Shown here piece after piece: positions 2,762 through 20,000 of a DNA stretch of 20,000 nucleotides. Below the pieces are notes generated by a model. It was given only the letters and a program-made list of their open reading frames with translations. It ran no database searches and was not told the DNA's origin. A program made the position numbers and the translations under genes. The stretch is taken from assembly GCF_004010195.1 (NCBI RefSeq), contig NC_057717.1, positions 106,509,517 to 106,529,516 of the forward strand, given 5' to 3'. Position 1 is the first letter of the stretch. Each line of letters opens with the position of its first letter. This DNA comes from Chiloscyllium plagiosum (lineage: Eukaryota).

Positions 2762-2789
2762 AAAGGCTGATTTGGTTCGGCTGCCTATC

Positions 2790-3830
2790 TCCATGTCATA
2801 ACATCTGTATAACCTTTTCAATATTTTCTAAGTTTCAATAGGATCACCTCTCAATTTTTGCAACTCTAGAGATCACACACCCAGTTTGTCCAAACTCTCT
2901 TCAGCGGACAGTCCCACTATCCCAGGAACACGTCTGGTGGAATGTAGTTGCACCCTGTCTATAGTAATGATATAGGGAAGGAAACCAAAACTACAGTCTA
3001 ACCAAGCTCCGATACAATTAAAGCAAGACTTCACTACTCATGTACACAAATCTCCTTGCAATAAAGACTACCATTCCATTAGCCTTTCTAACAGCTTGCT
3101 ACTCCTGTAGGTTGGCCTTCAGTGACTTATTGATAAGGACACCTAGGTGCCTTTATCTATCTACACTTTCCAATCTCTTAGCTTTCTCAAAATACTCTGC
3201 ACATCTGTTTCTCCCGCCAAAGTGGATAACCTTATATTTTCCAATTACATTCCATCTGCCATGTTCTTGACCAATCAGGACACCTGTCCAAATCTTCCAG
3301 AAGCTGCTTTACACCTTCATCCCAACACACATTCCCGCTTTGTTTTGGATCAATATTACATTTCCTCTCCCCCTTGAAATCATTGGTCAAGATTGTGAGC
3401 AGCTGGGGCCAAGTTCTGGTCCTTGTGGTTACCCATCCATCCCAGCTGCCAACATGAGAATGACCCATTTATACCGACTCTCTGTTTCCTGTCTGTTTGC
3501 CAATCGGTAATCCTTCCCTCCTATCCCATGCATTTTAATCTTTCTAACCAGACTCTTGTAGGGAACCTCATCATAAGTCTTCTGAAAATCTAAATGTATT
3601 ATGTCTTTTAACTCTCCATTATCAATTGTGTTCATAATATCTTTAAAGTTTCCCATTCGCAAATCCATGTTGATCATATCCAAACAAATTATTATCATCC
3701 AGGTGTCTATTTATCCCATTGCTCATAACAGACTGTGGCATTTTCCTGATTATTGATGTAAGACTAACAGCTGTATGAGTTCCCTGTTTCCTTTCTCTTT
3801 AATAGTGGGGTAACGTATTCTAGCTTTCCA
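2790..3830 (-). mobile_element. CR1 LINE ORF2 fragment, decayed with internal deletions
   Basis: Minus-strand peptides DIIHLDFQKTYDEVPYKSLVRKIKMHGIGG and QLLEDLDRCPDWSRTWQMECN match CR1 RT motifs. Confidence 0.85.
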
Positions 3831-4511: not shown

Positions 4512-4536
4512 GTGCTGAGTGGATGATCCATCTCAG

Positions 4537-4628
4537 TTGAAACTTTATTGCTGGAACAGCACAGCAGGTCAGGCAGCATCCAGGGAACAGGAGATTCGAC
4601 GTTTCGGGCACAGGCCCTTCTTCAGGAA
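4537..4628 (-). mobile_element. 92-bp Penelope-like mini-insertion with 15-bp TSD
   Basis: Flanked by exact GATGATCCATCTCAG at 4522-4536 and 4629-4643; carries a hammerhead motif and AATAAA on the minus strand. Confidence 0.85.
4595..4628 (-). ncRNA. Minimal type I hammerhead ribozyme motif, core intact
   Basis: Minus strand UUC-CUGAAGA-A-GGGC(CUGU)GCCC-GAAA-CG-UC/GAA: stem I UUC:GAA, 4-bp stem II, palindromic ACGU stem III, GUC cleavage triplet. Confidence 0.75.
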
Positions 4629-5428
4629 GATGATCCATCTCAGCCTCCTCCTGAGGTCCCCAGCAACACAAATGGAGTGTTCATTAGATTCACTCCACAT
4701 AATAACAAGAAATGGTTGGAGCACTACAAAGGTTAAGGCCCTGATAAGGTTGCAGCAATGGTATTGAAGATGTGTGCACCAAAACTTCCTGCACACCTTG
4801 CCAAATTGTTGCTGGATAGCTACGGCACTGACATCACCCAGCAATGAGGAAAATTGCCCAGGTAGGTCCTGTATATAAAAAAGCAGGACAAATCCAACCC
4901 GGCCCATGACCCTCCTTCAGATCGTCAGAAAATTGATGAAGGGGTTTTCAAAAGTGTGATCAAGTAGCAGCTGTTCAACAATAACCTGTTCAGTGATGCC
5001 CAGTTTGGGTTCCACCAGGGCCACTCAGCTCCTGACCTCATTAAAGCTTTGGTTTCAACATGGACAAAAAAGCTGAATTCCAGAGGGGAGGGGAGAGTGA
5101 CAGCCCTCGACATCAAGGCTGCCTTCAACCGAGTGTGGCATCAAGGAGCCCTAACAAAACTGGAATCAATGGGAGTCAAGGGGCAAACTCTCCACTGATT
5201 GTGGTCACACCTGACACACAGGAAGAAAGTTGTGGTTGTTGGAGATCAGTCATCTCAGCTCCAGGAGTTCCTCAGAGTAGTATCCTTGGCCCAACCATCT
5301 TCAACTGCTTCATCAATAACTTTCCCTCCATCATAAGGTCAGAAGTGGGGATGTTTACAGACGATTGTGCAATATTCAGCATCATTTGTGACTCATCAGA
5401 CATTGAAGCAGTCCATGTTAAAATACAG

Positions 5429-5718
5429 GGAGAAAGTGAGGACTGCAGATGCTGGAGATCAGAGCTGAAAATGTGTTGCTGGAAAAGCGCAGCAGGTCAG
5501 GCAGCATCCAAGGAGCAGGAGAATCGACGTTTCGGGCATGAGCCCTTCCTAACCTGCAATCTTCTTCCTGACCTCTCCGCCCCCACCCCCACTCCGGCCT
5601 ATCACCCCCACCTTAACCTCCTTCCACCTATCGCATTTCCAATGCCCGTCCCCCAAGTCCCTCCTCCCTACCTTTTATCTCATTCCTGAAGAAGGGCTCA
5701 TGCCCGAAACGTCGATTC
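5429..5718. mobile_element. Penelope-like insertion with inverted pLTR pieces and 17-bp TSD
   Basis: TCCATGTTAAAATACAG at 5412-5428 and 5719-5735; minus-strand pLTR piece 5429-5549 followed by a plus-strand C-rich segment ending in a hammerhead motif. Confidence 0.85.
5684..5715 (+). ncRNA. Minimal hammerhead ribozyme motif, core intact, very short stem I
   Basis: UC-CUGAAGA-A-GGGC(UCAU)GCCC-GAAA-CG-UC/GA. Confidence 0.65.
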
Positions 5719-6588: not shown

Positions 6589-6870
6589 AGTGAAAGTGAG
6601 GACTGCAGATGCTGGAGATTAGAGTCAAGAGTGTAGTGCTGGAAAGGCACAGCAGGTCAGGCAGCATCCAAAGAGCAGAGAATCGACGTTTCGGGCAAAA
6701 GCCCTTCAGCAGGAATGAGCACAGCAGGTCAGGCAGCATCCGAGCTGCAGGAGAGTCAATGTTTCAGGCAAAAGCCCTTCCTGATGAAGGGCTTTTGTCC
6801 GAAACATCGACTCTTCTGCTCCTTAGATGCTGCCTGACCTGCTGTGTTTTTCCAGCACTATGCTCTCGAC
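6589..6870. mobile_element. Penelope-like insertion with three pLTR pieces (two tandem minus, one inverted plus) and three mutated or truncated hammerheads
   Basis: Minus copies about 6592-6716 and 6718-6780, plus copy 6778-6870 (TTCCTGATGAAGGGCTTTTGTCCGAAACATC); imperfect TSD TACCTCCCCGCCA / TACCTCTCCTGCCA. Confidence 0.8.
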
Positions 6871-7332: not shown

Positions 7333-7442
7333 GTCAGGCAACATCTGAGGATCTCTTCGGATGCTGCCTTGACTGGCTGTGCTTTTCCAGCACAACACTC
7401 TCCGACTCTAATCTCCAGCATCTGTAGTCCTCACTTTCTCCT
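7333..7442 (+). mobile_element. Penelope-like mini-insertion with short inverted 5' end and 12-15 bp TSD, no hammerhead
   Basis: TCTAAAACCTTA at 7318-7329 and 7443-7454; GTCAGGCAACATCTGAGGA is inverted relative to TCTTCGGATGCTGCCTTGAC; ends CTCCAGCATCTGTAGTCCTCACTTTCTCC. Confidence 0.8.
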
Positions 7443-8312: not shown

Positions 8313-8608
8313 TCATAGAATCACAACAGTGTCCCCATCGAGTCCACAATGACCCTCTGAAGAGCATCCCCCCCCCCCCCCCCCCCCAACCCTATCCCTG
8401 CATTTCCCTAGGCTAATCCACCTAATCTGCACACTATGGTCAATTTTCTGTGCACTGTGGGAGGAAACTGGAGCACCCAGAGGAAACCCACGCAGACACG
8501 GGGAGAATGTACAAACTCCATGCAGACAAATTACCCGAGGGGGGAATCAAACATGGGTCCCTGGTGCTGTGAGGTAGCAGCACTAACCACTGAGCCACCA
8601 TGCTTCCC
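8313..8608 (-). mobile_element. HE1-type SINE with internal poly(C) expansion
   Basis: Reverse complement of TGGCTCAGTGGTTAGTGCTGC (A box) and GGTTTCCTCTGGGTGCTCCAGTTTCCTCCCACAG domain. Confidence 0.9.
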
Positions 8609-8838
8609 TACTTGCTAACTAACCCACAACGTTTTCTCACACATCAGAAAACTGCAGACTGAATACATAGTGGGAAACTTTTCAACTCTTTCTTGTGTCT
8701 TTAGGCATCCATCTCAGAGATAGATGGCTGTGATATTTTTAAGTTCACAGCTTGATTCTGTCAGGAGCACAGCATTCCAAAGGACTAAGTTAAAAATCAC
8801 ACAACACCAGGTTATAGTCCAACAGGTTTATTTGGAAG

Positions 8839-8873
8839 CACTAGCTTTCGGAGCGACGCTCCTTCATCAGGTG
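8839..8873 (-). ncRNA. Minimal hammerhead ribozyme motif, core intact
   Basis: Minus strand CAC-CUGAUGA-A-GGAGC(GUC)GCUCC-GAAA-GC-UA/GUG. Confidence 0.75.
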
Positions 8874-9304
8874 ATTGTGGAGAATAAGATTGTAAGACAG
8901 AATTTATAGCAAAAGTTTACAGTGTGATGTAACTGAAATATTATATTGAAAAAGACCTGGATTGTTTGTTCAAAAACTGCATGAATCCGTCTAAGATTCT
9001 GTAAATCTGTTTTTTAGATTAGAATCAGTCTGACCATTGTGGCACAGACAGCCTCACACAGGGAGCTAACACCCTCAATACATTATCTGGGCCGGCATGA
9101 CACTGTTGTTAAAATTCACTTGAGAATGTAACTTTTAAAAAAAAAATGTGATTTACGTATGAAAGAACTGGAACCAACATGTTCATTCTAAAAGATGAGA
9201 GACTTAACAAACAATCCAGGTCTTTTTCAATATAATATTTCAGTTACGTCACACTGTAAACTTTTGCTATAAATTCTGTATCTTACAATCTTATTCTCCA
9301 CAAT

Positions 9305-9339
9305 CACCTGATGAAGGAGCATCGCTCCGAAAGCTAGTG
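9305..9339 (+). ncRNA. Minimal hammerhead ribozyme motif, core intact
   Basis: CAC-CUGAUGA-A-GGAGC(AUC)GCUCC-GAAA-GC-UA/GUG: stem I CAC:GUG, 5-bp stem II, palindromic AGCU stem III. Confidence 0.75.
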
Positions 9340-10890
9340 CTTCCAAATAAACCTGTTGTACTATAACCTGGTGTTGGCTGATTTTTAATTTTGTACACCC
9401 CAGTCCACCACCAGTGTGTCTAAATCATTCCAAAGGACTGGCATTCTTTTACCTACACAATGTATTTGTCTGAGTTTAGCTGAACCCGGCCTTCCCAGTT
9501 CTCTCTATAGATTTCTGTTGTTGATGGCTGTATCTTTTCATCGACATCATAGAGGTCAGCTATGCACTGGCTCCCTTACATTCTCTGTAAATCTTACCTA
9601 TTATCTGTTGGAATGTATCCTGGTTCACTGCAAGGCTATCACATGAATAGGGAATGAACAAATGCTGTCAACAGAAAATATTCCTTTTTAAACTTCATGT
9701 TCTAATAGCATTTAATCCATCAAATTTGCTAAAAACTTTGACCGTATCAATGCTGGCATGGTCTCATGCATCAATAGATTTGTTGCTGGTTCAATGTGAT
9801 GTGAAACTCAAATTCTTCAGAGTACCCAGGCATCCCATACAAACACTCTGGGCCAAAGTTACTACACAAAAGAAGAAAAACAAAGCTATGTCTTTGACAA
9901 TTTAGAAAGATCTTAAGACAGATAGTAAAGTTTCAATCACTATCCTTTAGAGGTACTCAGTCTCAGAGAAATATTACGCCTAGCTCAACTCTTTCATTTC
10001 TTACTTTACTGACTTCTCAGTTCTCCTTCCTGGATTGCTGGGACCTTTTTACCATTTAAATCAGAATGCTGACATGAACCTATTTCAATCCTAATGCCCT
10101 AAACCTCTTTTCAATTCTAACAACTTGAAGACCCATCAACTCACAAACTTCAGTTGGGTTGATTGCTTCTCCTGATCTGAAAACCAGTTCTTCCGCTGGG
10201 AGTAAATTGTTCTCCTGAACTGAACTCCCAACACTTAGGAAGGAAACTCCAATCAGCCCTAAACGCAGTAGTACAAACATTTCGTTCATTAAGATCGCAG
10301 ATAGCAGATATTCTACTAGACAGTTAACTGACTGAGTAAAAAGGATCTGCCTTCACAGAAATCACATCGCTAGTTCCCTGTTCTAACCACCATCTGACCT
10401 CCTAATACAGTGGTTACTGCACAGAATTGAACACTACATTGCCTCTAATTGTAAAAAAAAATCACATTCCACTTTAACTCACACTAAAGAAAGACTGGGC
10501 CAGGCTACTGAAAATCCATGTAGCTCCGGCTGCATTTTCTTTTCTGATTGGACCTTTTCCCTGTTCAAGTGTATGTCGAACTGCCTTCTATGTGAGCTCC
10601 TTGAAACACCATTCTCTTTCAGACACGGAAATACACACTGATCATCCTCGTCAACTCTCACTGCTCCATCATTAATGTACTCACTTTCCCTCAGAACCAT
10701 CCCTGCCCTCCTGGGTGTAAGGCTCTGTCTGTGACACAGAGGGAGGAGGGATAGGGGGAATCTTCCATCTTCACCCCCCACTCCCCCGAGAGCGGGCTCA
10801 GGGTTGGAGCCGGGACATTATAACAACAACCCGAGGCGCTACCCGGCTCCAGCCTCAGCAAATAGGGAGATTAAAAATATTTATAATTAC

Positions 10891-12436: not shown

Positions 12437-13049
12437 AATGTAAAACCATGTTAATAGCAAATCTTGCTAAATTATGTTTTACTATTTACAAACCTACAGA
12501 AGACTTTTGCATTTCTTCATATCTTAACTGCCAATCTCCTGTTATTGTCTCTCTTTGCTTCTCTTATTTCTTATTTCACTTCATTTCTGATTTATTTGTA
12601 TTCTACCTTTCTGCTAAAAACCTGATCAGTTGTTCCATTTTCCCATTGTTCCATTTCAATCTGGCCTGCCAATCTTTCAAGTCATTCAGGTAATAAGTTC
12701 CTTGCAAAGGTAACTGGAGCTTAAAGTGGCAGAGGTCCAGGAGCCACAGAGTGGTGGAAAATGCAGTGAATGTTGTTGAATATTGTGTCATTTAGATAAT
12801 TTAAAGCTGAACAGTTTTATTTCATGTATTGCACTTGCGTTTTCTCAACTGAATGTTCATACTGTGAATTGTTGGAGTTGCAGTGACAGAATTAGAAACA
12901 AACCTTCAAATGTTTAGCTTGACTTCATCAGACTACAGGAAGTACATTGAGGATGCTTTTTTTTTTGTACATAGAAATGTGTGTCAAGTTTTTTTGTAGA
13001 AAAAGCACTTATTGTTAACTTATTCCTGTTATCCTTAAATACTGTACTT

Positions 13050-13406
13050 AGAGTCATAAAGATGTACAGCATAGAAACAGATCCTTCGGTCCAACCCGTC
13101 CATGCGGCCAGATATCCCAACCCAACCTAGTCCCACCTGCCAGCACCCGGCCCATATCCCTCCAAACCCTTCCTATTCATATACCCATCCAAATGCCTTT
13201 TACATGTTGCAATTGTACCAGCCTCCATCACTTCCTCTGGCCACTTGTTCCACACACGCACCACTCTCTGCGTGAAAAAGTTGCCTCTTAGGTCTCTTTT
13301 ATATCTTTTCCCTCTCACCCTAAACCTATGCCCTCCTGTACTGGACTTCCCGATCCCAGGGAAAATACTTTGTCTATTTACCCTATCCATGGCCCTCATG
13401 ATTTTG
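13050..13406 (-). mobile_element. CR1 (HER1-like) LINE 3' end
   Basis: Peptide KIMRAMDRVNRQSIFP..GHRFRVRG..DLRGNFFTQRVVRVWN..GTIATCKRHLDGYM plus 3' UTR ending ATGACTCTA. Confidence 0.92.
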
Positions 13407-13599
13407 GTAAAGGATATCATTACAGCTGTACTGTCTAGGAAATTAATGTTTCTCTTGTGTATTGTGACTTTAAATGTAGTAGGTGTGATCATTGTTGCGG
13501 ATATTAATGAATTCTTCTAATTCTGCTTCTGTACAAGTTCAAATACCTGCTAGACCGACACAAATTCAGAAGGTGTTATTACTGATCTATTTTATAGAG

Positions 13600-14385
13600 A
13601 TACAGTCATAGAGATGTACAGCATGGAATCAGACCCTTTGGCCTGACTCATCCATGCTAACCAGATATCCCAATCCAATCTAGTCCCATTTGCCAGCATT
13701 TGGCCCATCTCCCTCCAAATGCTTCCTATTGTACCAGCCTCCACCACTTCCTCTGGCAGCTCATTCCATATGCGCCCCACCTTCTATGTGAAAAAGCTGC
13801 CCCTTAGGTCCCTTTTATATCTTTCCTCTCTCACCCTAATCCTATGCCCTCTAGGTCTGGACTCCCCCAACCCACGGAAAAGACCTTGTCTATTTATCCT
13901 ATCCATGCTCCTCATGATTTTATAAACCTCTATAAGGTCACCCCTCAGCCTCTGATGCTCCAGGAAAAACAGCCCTAGCCTATAGAGCATCTCCCTATAG
14001 CTCAAACTCTACAACGCTGGCAACATCCTTGTAAATCTTTTCTGAATCCTTTCAAGTTTCACAACATCTTTCCGATTGGAAGGAAACTAGAACTGAATGC
14101 AATATTCCAAAAGTGGCCTAACCAATGTCCTGTACAGCTGCAATATGACCTCCCAACTTCTGTACTCAATACTCTGACCAATAAAGGAAAGCATACCAAT
14201 CACCTTCTTCACTATTCTATCTACCTGCAACTCCCCTTTCAAGGAACATTGAACCTGCACTCCAAGGTCTTGTTGTTCAACAACACTCCCCAGGACCTTA
14301 CCATTAAGTGTATAAATCTGCTCTGATTTGCTTTTCCAAAATGCAGCACCTCACATTAATATAAATTAAATTCCATCTGCTATTC
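13600..14385 (-). mobile_element. CR1 (HER1-like) LINE 3' portion
   Basis: Peptide SYREMLYRLGLFFLEHQRLRGDLIEVYKIMR; homologous to 17170-18056. Confidence 0.92.
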
Positions 14386-15937: not shown

Positions 15938-16281
15938 GTCATAGAATCATAGAGTCATAGAGATGTACAGCATGGAAACAGACCCTTCGGTCCAACCCGT
16001 CCATGCCGACCAGATATCCCAATCTAGTCCCACCTGCCAGCACCTTGCCCATTTCCCTCCAAACCCTTCCTATTCATATACCCATCCAAATGCCTCTTAA
16101 ATGTTGCAATTGTACCAGCCTCCACCACTTCCTCTGCCAGCTCATTCCATACATGTACCACCCTCTCCATGAAAAAGTTGCCCCTTAGGTCTCTTTTATA
16201 TCTTTCCCCTCTCACCCTAAACCTATGCCCTCTGTTCTGGACTCCCTGATCAAGGGAAATGACTTTGTCTATTTATCCTAA
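15938..16281 (-). mobile_element. CR1 (HER1-like) LINE 3' end with 8-bp tail repeats
   Basis: GTCATAGAATCATAGAGTCATAGAG tail; peptide RGERYKRDLRGNFFMERVVHVWNELAEEVVEAGTIATFKRHLD. Confidence 0.92.
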
Positions 16282-16334: not shown

Positions 16335-16843
16335 CAGAGGAACCTCGATTATCCCAATATCAATTATCCGAATATCAGATTATCTGAAGGGGATCTCAAG
16401 GTCCTGATAGAAACATTACATCAAAGAGCTGTTTCAACCCTGATTGCATCTTTTGTTTACAGGTACAGTGACTAAAAACGAACTCAGCTCACTGAAATGC
16501 TGCCAAGAACAGTCCTGGACAGTCCAGGCACCGTCTCTGAATAACTGACCTTCCACCCTCTCTCTCTGCCCCAACTCCCTGGAGTTCTACACAGGGATGA
16601 CCCCTAAACCCCCCTTCCCCAGATAATCTCTCCAACATTGTCCTGTACAGGGCAGAGGTGGAACCTGTCAAAAAGTTGTGTGTTCATGTGCATGTGTGCG
16701 TGTGTGTAGTCTGACTTTTGGTGTATAGTCCGGCTGCCCTGGGGGAGGTCAGCTGGGAAGGCAGGGCTGCAGATGGGGGTGGAATGGTGGGTGGGATGGA
16801 AGGAGGGGTGGGGTTGGGGCTGCAGGGTTGGGGGTGGGCGGGA
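16335..16843. mobile_element. Probable Tc1/mariner-pogo (Tigger-like) non-autonomous DNA transposon, one end only, cut by the gap
   Basis: TA followed by CAGAGGAACCTCGATTATCC, with subterminal repeats ATTATCCCAA/ATTATCCGAA/ATTATCTGAA; the partner TIR is not visible. Confidence 0.55.
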
Positions 16844-17169
16844 NNNNNNNNNNNNNNNNNNNNNNNNNNNNNNNNNNNNNNNNNNNNNNNNNNNNNNNNN
16901 NNNNNNNNNNNNNNNNNNNNNNNNNNNNNNNNNNNNNNNNNNNNNNNNNNNNNNNNNNNNNNNNNNNNNNNNNNNNNNNNNNNNNNNNNNNNNNNNNNNN
17001 NNNNNNNNNNNNNNNNNNNNNNNNNNNNNNNNNNNNNNNNNNNNNNNNNNNNNNNNNNNNNNNNNNNNNNNNNNNNNNNNNNNNNNNNNNNNNNNNNNNN
17101 NNNNNNNNNNNNNNNNNNNNNNNNNNNNNNNNNNNNNNNNNNNNNNNNNNNNNNNNNNNNNNNNNNNNN
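16844..17169. other. Assembly gap (N run)
   Basis: 326 N bases, preceded by a G-rich tract. Confidence 1.
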
Positions 17170-18056
17170 GTGGACAGTGAAGAGGGTTACCTCAGATTAC
17201 AACAGGATCTTGACCAGATGGGCCAATGGGCTGAGAAGTGGCAGATGGAGTTTAATTCAGATAAATGTGAGGTGCTGCATTTTGGGAAAGCAAATCTTAG
17301 CAGGACTTATACACTTAATGGTAAGGTCCTAGGGAGTGTTGCTGAACAAAGAGACCTTGGAGTGCAGGTTCATAGCTCCTTGAAACTGGAGTCCCAGGTT
17401 GATAGGCTACTGACGAAGGCATTTGGTATGCTTTCCTTTATTGGTCAGAGTATTGAGTACAGGAGTTGGGAGGTCATGTTGTGGCTGTACAGGACATTGG
17501 TTAGGCTATTGTTGGAATATTGCATGCAATTCTGGTCTCCTTCCTATCGGAAAGATGTTGTGAAACTTGAAAGGGTTCAGAAACGATTTACAAGGATGTT
17601 GCCAGGGTTGGAGGATTTGAGCTATAGGGAAAGGTTGAATAGGCTGGGGCTATTTTCCCTGCAGCGCTGAAGGCTGTGGGGTGACTTTACAGAGTTTTAC
17701 AAAATCATGAGGGGCATGGATAGGATAAATAGACAAAGTCTTTTCCCTGGGCTGGGGAGTCCAAAACTAGAGGGCATAAGTTTAGGGTGAGAGGGGAAGG
17801 ATATAAAAGGGACCTAAGAGGCAACGTTTTCATGCAGAGGGTGGTACTGTATGGAATGAGTTGCCAGAGGAAGTGGTGAAGGCTGGTACAATTGCAACCT
17901 TTAAAAGGCATTTGGATGGACATATGATTAGGAAGGGTTTGGAGGGATATGAGCCAAGTGCTGGCAGGTGGGACTAGATTGGGTTGGGATATCTGGCCGG
18001 CATGGATGAATTGGACCGAAGGGTCTGTTTCTGTGCTGTACATTTCTATGACTCTA
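17170..18056 (+). mobile_element. CR1 (HER1-like) LINE ORF2 C-terminus and 3' UTR, relatively young
   Basis: Open frame LQQDLDQMGQWAEKWQMEFNSDKCEVLHFG..RDLGVQV..LEYCMQFWSP..LERVQKRFTRMLPGL; ends TTCTATGACTCTA. Confidence 0.95.
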
Positions 18057-18159
18057 AAGAACTATTTATGATGCATGGCATCCAGATGGACCAGGGATGA
18101 GGCTTGGGATAGACTTGTTCACTCTCACATGAACTGATGACCTCCATCGGTGAATATTT

Positions 18160-18292: not shown

Positions 18293-18349
18293 GCAACTTT
18301 GGAACTCTTTGCCTCAGAAGCAGTGGAGTGGGATCATTAAATACTTGTA

Positions 18350-19025
18350 AAGTTGAAAATCACACAACACCAAGTTGTGGTGTGTTCAACAGGTTCATTT
18401 GGAAGCACTAGCTTTTGGAGCGCTGCTCCTTCATCAGGTGGTTGTGAAGCAGGATCATAAGACACAGGATTTTTTGCAAAAGATTACAGTGTCATGCAGC
18501 TGAAATGATATATTGAACAGACCTGGATTGCTGTTAAGTCTTTCGTCTTTTAGAATGGGTTGCGGGTTTTGGTTCATTGATACGTAAATCCCAGAACTAC
18601 TTTTACATCACATTCTTGAGATAACTTAAGGTTTTTATAATACAAGGGTGACATCTCAGCTCAGACAGAGCATTAAAGATGGGAGGTTAGAATCTATATG
18701 ATCCCAGTCTTGAGTCAGACTGGTTCTATTTCCAAAGTGGAATTTATGAAATATTACATGGATTGACTGCCTGCAGATGGTGCACTTTTTGAGCAAAGTA
18801 GAATATATCTGCAAATATAATTCTACAAATGGAAATTCACCCCATAGACTTATACGTGTGTGTGCATGAGAGAGAGAGAGTGTGTGTGAGTGTCTGCATG
18901 TGAGTGTGTGTACATATGAGTATAGGTCCGCGTGAGAGACTGTGTGTTTGGATGTATGTATGTTTGGTAAAGTGTGTGTGTGACTGTTATGGAGTATAAC
19001 CCTGTGAGAGGGTGTGAGAGTGGGA
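18350..19025 (-). mobile_element. Penelope-like pLTR-type repeat related to 8787-9425, with (TG)/(GA)-rich tract; hammerhead mutated
   Basis: AAGTTGAAAATCACACAACACC..GGAAGCACTAGCTTTTGGAGCGCTGCTCCTTCATCAGGTG is homologous to 8787-8970; similarity continues to the reverse complement of 9060-9205; degenerate microsatellite 18855-19025. Confidence 0.8.
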
Positions 19026-19029
19026 GTGA

Positions 19030-20000
19030 GTGCTGCACTCCCTTAGCACTGACCCTCCGACAGTGCGGCACTCCTTCAGCACTGCTCATCCGACAGTGCG
19101 GCAATCCCTCATCACAAACCCTTCAACAGTCCTGCACTCCCTCAGCACTGACCCTCTGACAGTGCGGCACTCCATCAGTACTCTCCCTCTGACAGTGTAG
19201 CACTCCCTCAGCACTGACCCTCTGACAGTGCGGCACTCCATCAGTACTCTCCCTCCGACAGTGTAGCACTCCCTCAACACTGACCCTCCGACAGTACGGC
19301 ACTCCCTTAGCACTGACCCTCCGATAGTGCGGCACTCCTTCAGCACTGACCCTCCGACAGTGCAGCGCACCCTCAGCACTGACCCTCCGACAGTACGGCA
19401 CTCCCTCAGCACTGACCCTCTGACAGTGCCCACTCCCTCAGCACTGACCCTCTGACAGTGCGGCACTCCTTCAGCAATGACCCTCCGACAGTGCGGCATT
19501 CCCTCAGCAGTGACACTCTGAGAGTGCAGCACTCCCTTAGCACTGACCCTCTGACAGTGCGGCACTCCCTCAGTAATGACCCTCCGACAGTACGGAACTC
19601 CTTCAGCACTGACCCTCCGACAGTGCAGCGCACCCTCAGCAGTGACCCTCCGACAGTGCGGCACTCCCTCAACACTGACCCTCCGACAGTGCGCCAATCC
19701 CTCAGCACTGATCTTCATACAGTGCCCACTCCCTCAGTACTGACTGTTTAACAGTGCACCACTCCCTCAGCACTGACCATCCGACAGTGCGGCACTCCCT
19801 CAGTACTGACCTTCCGACAGTGCAGCAATCCCTCAGCACTGACCCTCCGACAGTGCGGTGCTCCCTCAGTACTGACCCTCCGACAGTGCGGCGCTCCCTC
19901 AGTAATGACCTTCCAACAGTGCGGCACTCACTCAGTATTGACCCTCCAACAGTGCGTCACTCCCTCAGCACTGACCCTCTGACAGTGCAGCACTCCCTCA
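19030..20000. repeat. 33-bp minisatellite (CACTCCCTCAGCACTGACCCTCCGACAGTGCGG)n, continuing past the window end
   Basis: About 29 adjacent diverged units with no unique spacers. Confidence 0.97.

Follow-up and report, generated by a model that had tools for sequence, protein, structure and literature searches.

Penelope-like elements (PLEs) that carry an endonuclease (EN+) are defined by a reverse transcriptase (RT) followed by a C-terminal GIY-YIG nuclease, as set out in passages of PMC8557442 and PMC11167929, and PLEs are already known in sharks from parts of two further reports (PMC8455134, PMC4350176). Here we analyze a fold-back unit at positions 8773-9439 of a 20,000-nucleotide stretch of DNA from Chiloscyllium plagiosum (NCBI RefSeq assembly GCF_004010195.1, contig NC_057717.1, positions 106,509,517 to 106,529,516 of the forward strand). 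This whole stretch is hereafter called the window, and all coordinates without a prefix are counted from its first letter. The two arms of the unit are inverted relative to each other and each holds a motif of the minimal hammerhead ribozyme (min-HHR) class. The locus is an insertion unit of an already known type, an EN+ PLE with min-HHRs, and is ordinary for this genome. What is mildly new is confined to quantitative points, namely a near-strict rule that a fold-back carries one tail and a turnaround hot spot represented at 2,207 genomic sites.

The part of PMC8557442 that treats unit structure (Craig et al.) gives an adjacent inverted 5'-truncated copy and a tail of 30-40 bp, often at one end only, as general features of PLEs. 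The unit described here resembles the canonical EN+ units covered in that part of the report (Penelope/Poseidon, Neptune and Nematis) in its heavy 5'-truncation, its adjacent inverted truncated copy, its one-end tail of the same size class, the presence of a hammerhead ribozyme (HHR) in the terminal repeat, and the RT and C-terminal GIY-YIG nuclease found in long copies or their homologues. Biochemical analysis is available for PAc, a Poseidon element of Anolis carolinensis: in vitro, its protein cuts the two strands of the target and extends both of them (PMC11167929). In that system the RNA is reverse-transcribed from internal start points, two neighboring sites ~30-40 nt from each other that lie in an AC-rich stem-loop downstream of the HHR, and the sequence between the two sites becomes the tail; HHR cleavage is protein-assisted and is dispensable for insertion in vitro (PMC11167929). 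The family analyzed here likewise has two classes of 3' end ~35 nt apart. It differs from PAc in that start-site use in vitro is the same on both strands whereas the two ends of a fold-back nearly always use different sites here, and in that the HHR of PAc lies at the start of the open reading frame (ORF) whereas here it lies ~480 nt past the ORF stop.

The hammerhead motif itself is best compared with the metazoan PLE min-HHRs, for which passages of Cervera and de la Pena 2014 (PMC4209133) report pairs 100-700 bp apart on opposite strands. The two motif starts in our unit are 466 bp apart on opposite strands, and the motif shares with the min-HHRs of those passages a G10.1-C11.1 pair, a palindromic AGCU, the lack of a real helix III and a massive copy number. 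It differs from them in having a helix I of 3 bp rather than 4-5 bp and a helix II of 5 bp rather than the 7-8 bp of Schistosoma families. Published min-HHRs, according to parts of PMC4209133 and PMC11167929, require a second copy or a protein for cleavage and are thought to act as dimers. A full-text literature search returned no description of this hammerhead family in cartilaginous fishes, and term look-ups in PMC4209133 show no mention of sharks or of cartilaginous fishes in general.

Related short sequences are the non-LTR retrozymes, non-autonomous HHR sequences related to the pseudo-long terminal repeats (pLTRs) of PLEs, which are reported from one chondrichthyan genome (bioRxiv 10.64898/2026.07.22.740005). 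Retrozymes consist of direct tandem repeats with same-strand HHRs and can give circular RNAs, whereas the two arms of our unit are inverted relative to each other and each strand carries a single motif. We found no tandem repeat and no direct tandem pLTR copies at 8773-9439, where the motifs lie on opposite strands. A further point of comparison is twin priming by LINE-1, in which the opposite target strand is primed as well, and the inverted 5' segment that results is joined at microhomology within a single target-site duplication (TSD). The inverted piece of LINE-1 is a different and more 5' part of the element, whereas in our unit both pieces start in the same 3'-terminal region and a true inverted repeat results.

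Identity of the unit at 8773-9439

We conclude with high confidence that 8773-9439 is one insertion of a very abundant and decayed PLE with a C-terminal GIY-YIG domain, arising from a single event and consisting of 3' untranslated region (UTR) only. Other genomic copies align with 8965-9388 or 8965-9428 as a single colinear block that extends further upstream, so that the apparent spacer, the right arm and the tail together make up a single 5'-truncated copy, 464 bp in length, that derives from a longer element. Joined to it head-to-head is the left arm, which repeats the last 187 bp of this element in inverted orientation and is 86% identical to a long reference copy (L026, element positions 2769-2941, minus strand). 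For the right arm there are more than 3,172 candidate copies in the 3.56-Gb genome, and identity to it is 92-100% among the 40 scored.

Following the colinear block upstream leads into coding sequence. At one locus (L009) the continuation enters an ORF of 216 amino acids (P0001, the endonuclease ORF) with the motifs VIY...HIGET, for which a first look at the genome gave more than 50,000 candidates, and a copy in another locus (L024) carries an ORF of 598 amino acids (P0002). A database search with the latter gave 444 relatives at E<=1e-5; among those with names the best come from sharks (Heptranchias, Scyliorhinus, Mustelus, Chiloscyllium and Hemiscyllium), with more distant named relatives from turtles, ticks and echinoderms. 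Pfam scans of four relatives found RVT_1 in all four (E 5e-9 to 3e-11) and GIY-YIG above the cut-off in two (E about 1e-5), and P0001 aligns to the GIY-YIG-bearing region of the relative P0026 with 36% identity (E 7e-38). Three long copies (L026, L027 and L028) are ~90% identical over a body of ~2.95 kb, which makes the element roughly 3 kb in length, and each of them has an inverted 3' fragment at its 5' end. The hammerhead is located in the 3' UTR, 55-90 nt from the 3' ends of the element, and is present in intact or decayed form in all long copies examined.

The architecture of the locus had been outlined in a preliminary description made from the sequence, which proposed inverted arms with an intact hammerhead motif in each, an unpaired tail on one side and a TSD of 14 bp. 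A repeat search of the window recovered the arms as two segments, 8784-8897/9281-9394 (114 nt, 95% complementary) and 8897-8970/9206-9279 (74 nt, 99% complementary), which are a single 187/189-nt pair interrupted by a 2-nt indel; apart from this indel the left and right arms differ by 8 substitutions. The one-sided tail is likewise as proposed, with ~31-34 nt of extra sequence 3' of the right arm and no left-hand counterpart. As for the duplication, a perfect direct repeat, CATTCCAAAGGACT, does flank the unit with 14/14 identity and is the sole direct repeat of at least 12 nt within 8400-9800, but its length needs qualification. Three nucleotides at each boundary, ACT at the end of the left copy and CAT at the start of the right copy, are also readable as element, so that the true target duplication is 8-14 bp; this overlap of repeat and element at the boundaries may reflect microhomology at priming. 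Coordinates of all features are collected in Table 1.

Folding of 8773-9439 as RNA gave -350.9 kcal/mol as compared to -141.4 +/- 5.4 kcal/mol for 20 shuffles (z = -39), which is a trivial consequence of the inverted repeat and its 187-bp hairpin. It had also been suggested that a transcript of either strand contains one ribozyme and can form a long double-stranded hairpin. One motif per strand and a long hairpin do follow from the sequence and the fold, but the duplex of that hairpin encloses the motif: were transcription to read through the unit, either motif would pair with its antisense partner and be locked within 187 bp of double-stranded RNA. The motifs at this locus are the normal min-HHR motif of the family, passively carried, and a function of the locus is not indicated. 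The unit is furthermore nonfunctional from the start (dead-on-arrival), as it has no coding sequence and is not self-mobile. Little hangs on the locus for genome annotation, in which it counts among tens of thousands of decayed copies; the proper course is to mask it as a fragment of a PLE and not to report a novel fold-back element or a miniature inverted-repeat transposable element (MITE).

Table 1. Features of the PLE insertion unit in the window.
Feature	Coordinates	Strand	Remarks
Left flanking direct repeat (target-site duplication), 14 bp	8773..8786		100% identity; final ACT shared with element end
Inverted arm, 187-bp 5'-truncated PLE 3' UTR copy	8784..8970	-	Begins at inner 3' end (site 1), tailless
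Minimal type-I hammerhead motif, left arm	8839..8873	-	CAC/CUGAUGA/A/GGAGC-GUC-GCUCC/GAA/AGCU-A/GUG; 0 mismatches
Copy-copy junction TTTGTT	8965..8970		Assignable to either copy; ~4-6 nt microhomology
Apparent spacer, the upstream part of the right-hand PLE 3' UTR copy	8971..9205	+	Colinear with 9206-9428 in other genomic copies
Right arm, the stretch of the 464-bp forward copy repeated in inverted orientation on the left	9206..9394	+	Inverted-repeat and genomic-copy matches
Minimal type-I hammerhead motif, right arm	9305..9339	+	Loop 2 AUC; predicted cleavage after A at 9336
AC-rich tail between alternative 3' ends	9395..9425	+	Site 1 near 9388-9397, site 2 near 9425-9428; right end only
Right flanking direct repeat, 14 bp	9426..9439		Initial CAT also matches family tail end; alignments reach 9427/9428

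Ends, junctions and the mode of insertion

Loci sampled through the hammerhead motif (30 in number) yielded 27 insertion units, of which 13 are head-to-head, 12 are single and 2 are ambiguous; these classes are our own reading of BLAST tables, for which two natural reference copies served as mapping targets. When the first 100 listed motif matches, which lie on contig 1, are sorted by relative orientation, -/+ pairs within 2 kb number nine (spaced by 44 to 1,826 bp), +/- pairs two and same-strand pairs also two (spaced by 355 and 2,517 bp), while by our own estimate chance would give ~0.3 pairs per class within 2 kb at that motif density. The arms of fold-backs range from ~60 to ~1,350 bp, with examples of 965/215, 1350/370 and 91/122 bp; arms of up to ~1350 bp occur in the fold-backs L010 and L011, and the motif-sampled units span ~60 to ~900 bp. 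Genome-wide, there are 2,207 sites at which hammerhead 5' halves face each other at a distance of 0-30 nt across near-perfect palindromic junctions. Many fold-backs as well as single copies begin at the equivalent of 9296-9308, a turnaround hot spot that lies just upstream of the motif and is distinct from the predicted cleavage site at 9336/9337. Located within ~15 nt upstream of the hammerhead, the hot spot could mark the 5' end of the RNA (a transcription start) or a roadblock to the RT, formed by the ribozyme or a ribonucleoprotein (RNP).

The 3' ends of the family fall into two classes, one roughly 55 nt and the other roughly 90 nt past the predicted cleavage site. Among 40 copies selected through their ORF (L059-L098), 21 end at site 1 (the equivalent of 9387-9400) and 12 at site 2 (9425-9428), with 2 ending between the sites and 5 stopping short of the end in the fetched stretch. 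The sequence between the two sites is conserved in the family and is AC-rich (17/19 in the core, own count). Both outer ends of the window unit match these alternative ends, the left one at site 1 and the right one at site 2. This combination recurs in other fold-backs. In a set of 18 fold-back candidates that includes the window unit, exact flanking repeats occur in nine, with a length of 11-15 bp in 7 of them and of 8 bp in 2, and all nine of these duplication-bearing candidates have a tail on exactly one end. A second sample was drawn by junction and blind to the ends, as 20 consecutive sites (L099-L118) of the 2,207, of which 2 are interrupted and 18 are complete. Exactly one tail is present in 17 of the 18 complete fold-backs, two tails in one and zero in none; a flanking repeat of 7-16 bp is present in 17; and in 15 the element coordinates at which the two arms end are no more than 0-5 nt apart, with a difference of 7-8 nt in the other three. 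Under independent site choice at most half of fold-backs would be single-tailed, and the probability of at least 17 in 18 would then be below 1e-4 by our own calculation. The near-strict one-tail rule therefore indicates that the two ends are coupled and not independent. The equal start-site use on both strands published for the in vitro system would likewise not yield such a rule under independent choice.

From the colinearity, end classes, duplications and end coupling observed here we infer the following order of events. The endonuclease of the element would nick both target strands ~8-14 bp apart, a step modeled on the Anolis PLE biochemistry, and the staggered nicks would yield the flanking repeat. 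Reverse transcription would then begin inside the element RNA at one of the two adjacent sites, with the right end produced from the outer site, which gives the tail, and the left end from the inner site. Both DNA copies would halt early, at 187 and 464 nt, and would be joined centrally at TTTGTT (8965-8970). The family sequence at this junction reads CTTTGCTCAAAAA; other copies align from 8965, and the left arm extends to 8970. Coupling of the ends might be explained by a dimeric RNP with active sites ~35 nt apart or by return synthesis that is blocked at the inner site. A coupled process of this kind, with the inner site serving one end and the outer site the other and with the hot-spot and hairpin-reservoir readings included, is a tentative proposal that we consider doubtful as a whole. 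If it is true, then fold-backs would form a genome-wide reservoir of hairpin RNA directed against the family.

On our analysis, priming on both target strands would be favored over fold-back self-priming of a single cDNA, and we lean toward it at slightly better than even, for two reasons: biochemical work supports it directly, and single copies make genuine use of site 1 as a start site. The self-priming (snap-back) route involves the same element and the same event. A cDNA begun at the outer site would halt at the equivalent of 8965, its 3' AACAAA would anneal to TTTGTT on the same cDNA (the antisense of 9206-9211), and synthesis would copy back to the inner site. This is a serious competitor that accounts for the structure just as well, and to which we give a minority share of the probability. 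The junction hexamer 8965-8970 is the exact reverse complement of 9206-9211, the route naturally yields one tail per fold-back as seen in 17/18 and 9/9 cases, and both the near-perfect palindromic junctions at the 2,207 sites and the agreement of arm ends within 0-5 nt in 15/18 are in keeping with it. Return synthesis would, however, have to halt at a real initiation site, at which 21 of 40 long copies end, and the route leaves that coincidence unexplained. Moreover, the only available biochemistry shows extension of both target strands (PMC11167929), and a primer that relies on 6 nt of homology to close a 235-nt loop is weak.

Other explanations fare considerably worse than either of these routes. 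Two independent insertions of the same family, adjacent or nested and in opposite orientation, are very improbable. The family is dense enough (16,625 exact motifs) for clusters to exist, with L046 and L056 each containing several units, and the arms are 4-5% different with an uneven split of derived changes. However, one 14-bp repeat flanks the entire unit while neither arm has a repeat of its own, the arms meet at microhomology with no target DNA between them, the nine -/+ pairs and two +/- pairs among the 100 listed matches compare with ~0.3 of each expected, and the one-tail rule also argues against separate events.

There is a negligible chance that the unit is a non-autonomous DNA transposon, a MITE or another kind with terminal inverted repeats, whose hammerhead-like motif is fortuitous. 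Such elements resemble it in outward shape only, namely a length of ~650 bp, inverted arms that are long and a direct repeat at the flanks. The apparent loop continues colinearly into the right arm as part of the 3' UTR of an RT/endonuclease-type element, the ends are asymmetric with a tail on one side, and an inverted partner is missing altogether from about half of the copies. The preliminary description had preferred an inverted-pLTR insertion of a PLE, and had named fixed symmetric termini and a constant TSD length as the marks of a DNA transposon that a comparison of copies might reveal. Instead, arm lengths and inversion breakpoints vary among copies, fixed termini were not seen, and flanking repeats of 7-16 bp are not constant, so the MITE reading is refuted on those terms. 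The PLE reading is borne out by the colinearity with an RT/GIY-YIG-type ORF, by the variable arms and by the one-sided tail. Equally improbable is a single 5'-truncated insertion to which local rearrangement (replication template switching or palindrome formation) later added the inverted arm; junction microhomology is also typical of replication-based rearrangements, but here the inverted arm ends exactly at the inner 3' end and adjoins an intact copy of the target repeat, and thousands of sites share this architecture together with its end rule.

Taken at the level of the family, the two 3' ends ~35 nt apart, the near-strict one-tail rule, the duplications of 7-16 bp and the turnaround hot spot upstream of the ribozyme provide a clean natural data set on the mechanism of PLE integration. 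These numbers agree with, and slightly sharpen, the 2024 in vitro result of two internal initiation sites (PMC11167929).

The hammerhead motif and the points against the reading

The motif was searched for as CTGATGA-A-GGAGC-NNN-GCTCC-GAAAGCTA. Both arms hold it intact on opposite strands, as the preliminary description had stated, with 0 mismatches at 8842-8870 (-) and 9308-9336 (+) and with flanking CAC and GTG; none of 200 shuffles gave a match. Exact matches in the 3.56-Gb genome number 8,372 + 8,253 = 16,625, as compared to 0 for a reversed control. We assigned the ribozyme register by hand using the min-HHR features given in passages of PMC4209133. This register reads CAC; C3-U-G-A-U-G-A9; an extra A; G10.1-GAGC (loop AUC/GUC) GCUC-C11.1; G12-A-A14; A15.1-G15.2-C16.2-U16.1; A17; GUG. 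The core boxes CUGAUGA and GAAA are intact in both arms, position 17 (H) is A, and the additional nucleotide that separates positions 9 and 10.1 is the A at 9315. Helix II (GGAGC/GCUCC) starts with the G10.1-C11.1 pair, the AGCU that follows GAA is palindromic at 15.2-16.2, and helix III is absent from the motif, as it is in published min-HHRs. A monomeric alternative register, with AGC/GCU as helix III, a UAGU loop and cleavage after CUU, was rejected as it leaves no helix I. Thermodynamic folds of the monomer (z about -1) and of the dimer by cofolding do not recover the hammerhead, and such folds are uninformative here.

The window contains one further single 5'-truncated copy of the PLE 3' UTR, at 18349-18604 (-). 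This copy is ~256 bp in length, is 75-81% identical to the arms, ends at site 1 and is tailless. It holds a third motif at 18409-18437 (-) with 1 mismatch, in which G12 is changed to A (GAAA to AAAA); judged from the sequence, this change should kill the core.

A number of observations weigh against the reading of 8773-9439 as a PLE insertion that carries a min-HHR and was primed on both target strands. As regards the family assignment, the decayed ORFs P0001 and P0002 have neither a significant Pfam match of their own nor a PDB match (the PDB sequence search being named for P0002), so that the RT/GIY-YIG assignment rests on database homologues. As regards the insertion mechanism, no TSD was detected in 6-9 of the 18 fold-back candidates, and one of the complete junction-drawn fold-backs (L113) is an exception with tails at both ends and no target duplication detected. 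Independent priming on both strands does not predict the one-tail rule. Derived substitutions are also uneven between the arms, with 7 in the right arm versus 1 in the left (binomial p about 0.07), which may reflect two different template RNAs or chance.

The remaining points concern the ribozyme. Only CAC/GUG pairs contiguously in helix I, which is shorter than in the published consensus, and the subfamilies with GTGCTTCC and GTGTGCTT downstream of the motif both retain GUG, with no compensatory changes in helix I seen. Rfam gave no hammerhead in the whole window at the gathering score or in 8700-9500 at E<=10, and the hammerhead call consequently rests on a descriptor-type match together with the family context. 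Such a miss is expected for a motif that has no helix III; the two weak Rfam matches, to ArcZ and bicoid_3, were dismissed as chance. In 35 copies chosen via the ORF, independently of the motif, the exact motif is present in only 7 and the core with a paired helix II in 12. Across these same copies the motif is no better conserved than its flanks, the last ~170 nt being about equally conserved, and the CpG positions of the motif are its least conserved columns. This pattern, with no added constraint visible on the motif, is as expected from neutral decay of dead copies and is uninformative on function in the source elements.

Other sequence in the window

Pfam scans of 34 ORFs in the window found no host-gene domain or exon. 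An open frame of 214 amino acids at 5045-5686 (+) has a sub-threshold match to RVT_1 (E 6e-4, 20 bits versus 29.6) and probably represents a decayed fragment of LINE type with no relation to the PLE. An assembly gap of 326 N occupies 16844-17169, and ORFs that run across it (for example 16729-17670) are artefacts. Open-frame lengths in genome matches can be inflated by N gaps in the same manner; a 745-amino-acid open frame at C1:150766104 (L023, C1:150761500-150769500) was rejected for this reason, as its N run is read as X.

The window is rich in repeats. Other interspersed repeat families with multiple copies in the window, at 74-90% identity, are located at 13048-14380, 15950-16280 and 17241-18057, and further interspersed repeats lie at 2680-2760, 4535-4629, 5429-5550, 6592-6870 and 7353-7441. 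A GC-rich minisatellite with a 33-bp unit occupies 19029-20000 (29.5 copies, 82% matches) and runs off the end of the window, the last kilobase of which has a GC fraction of 0.59.

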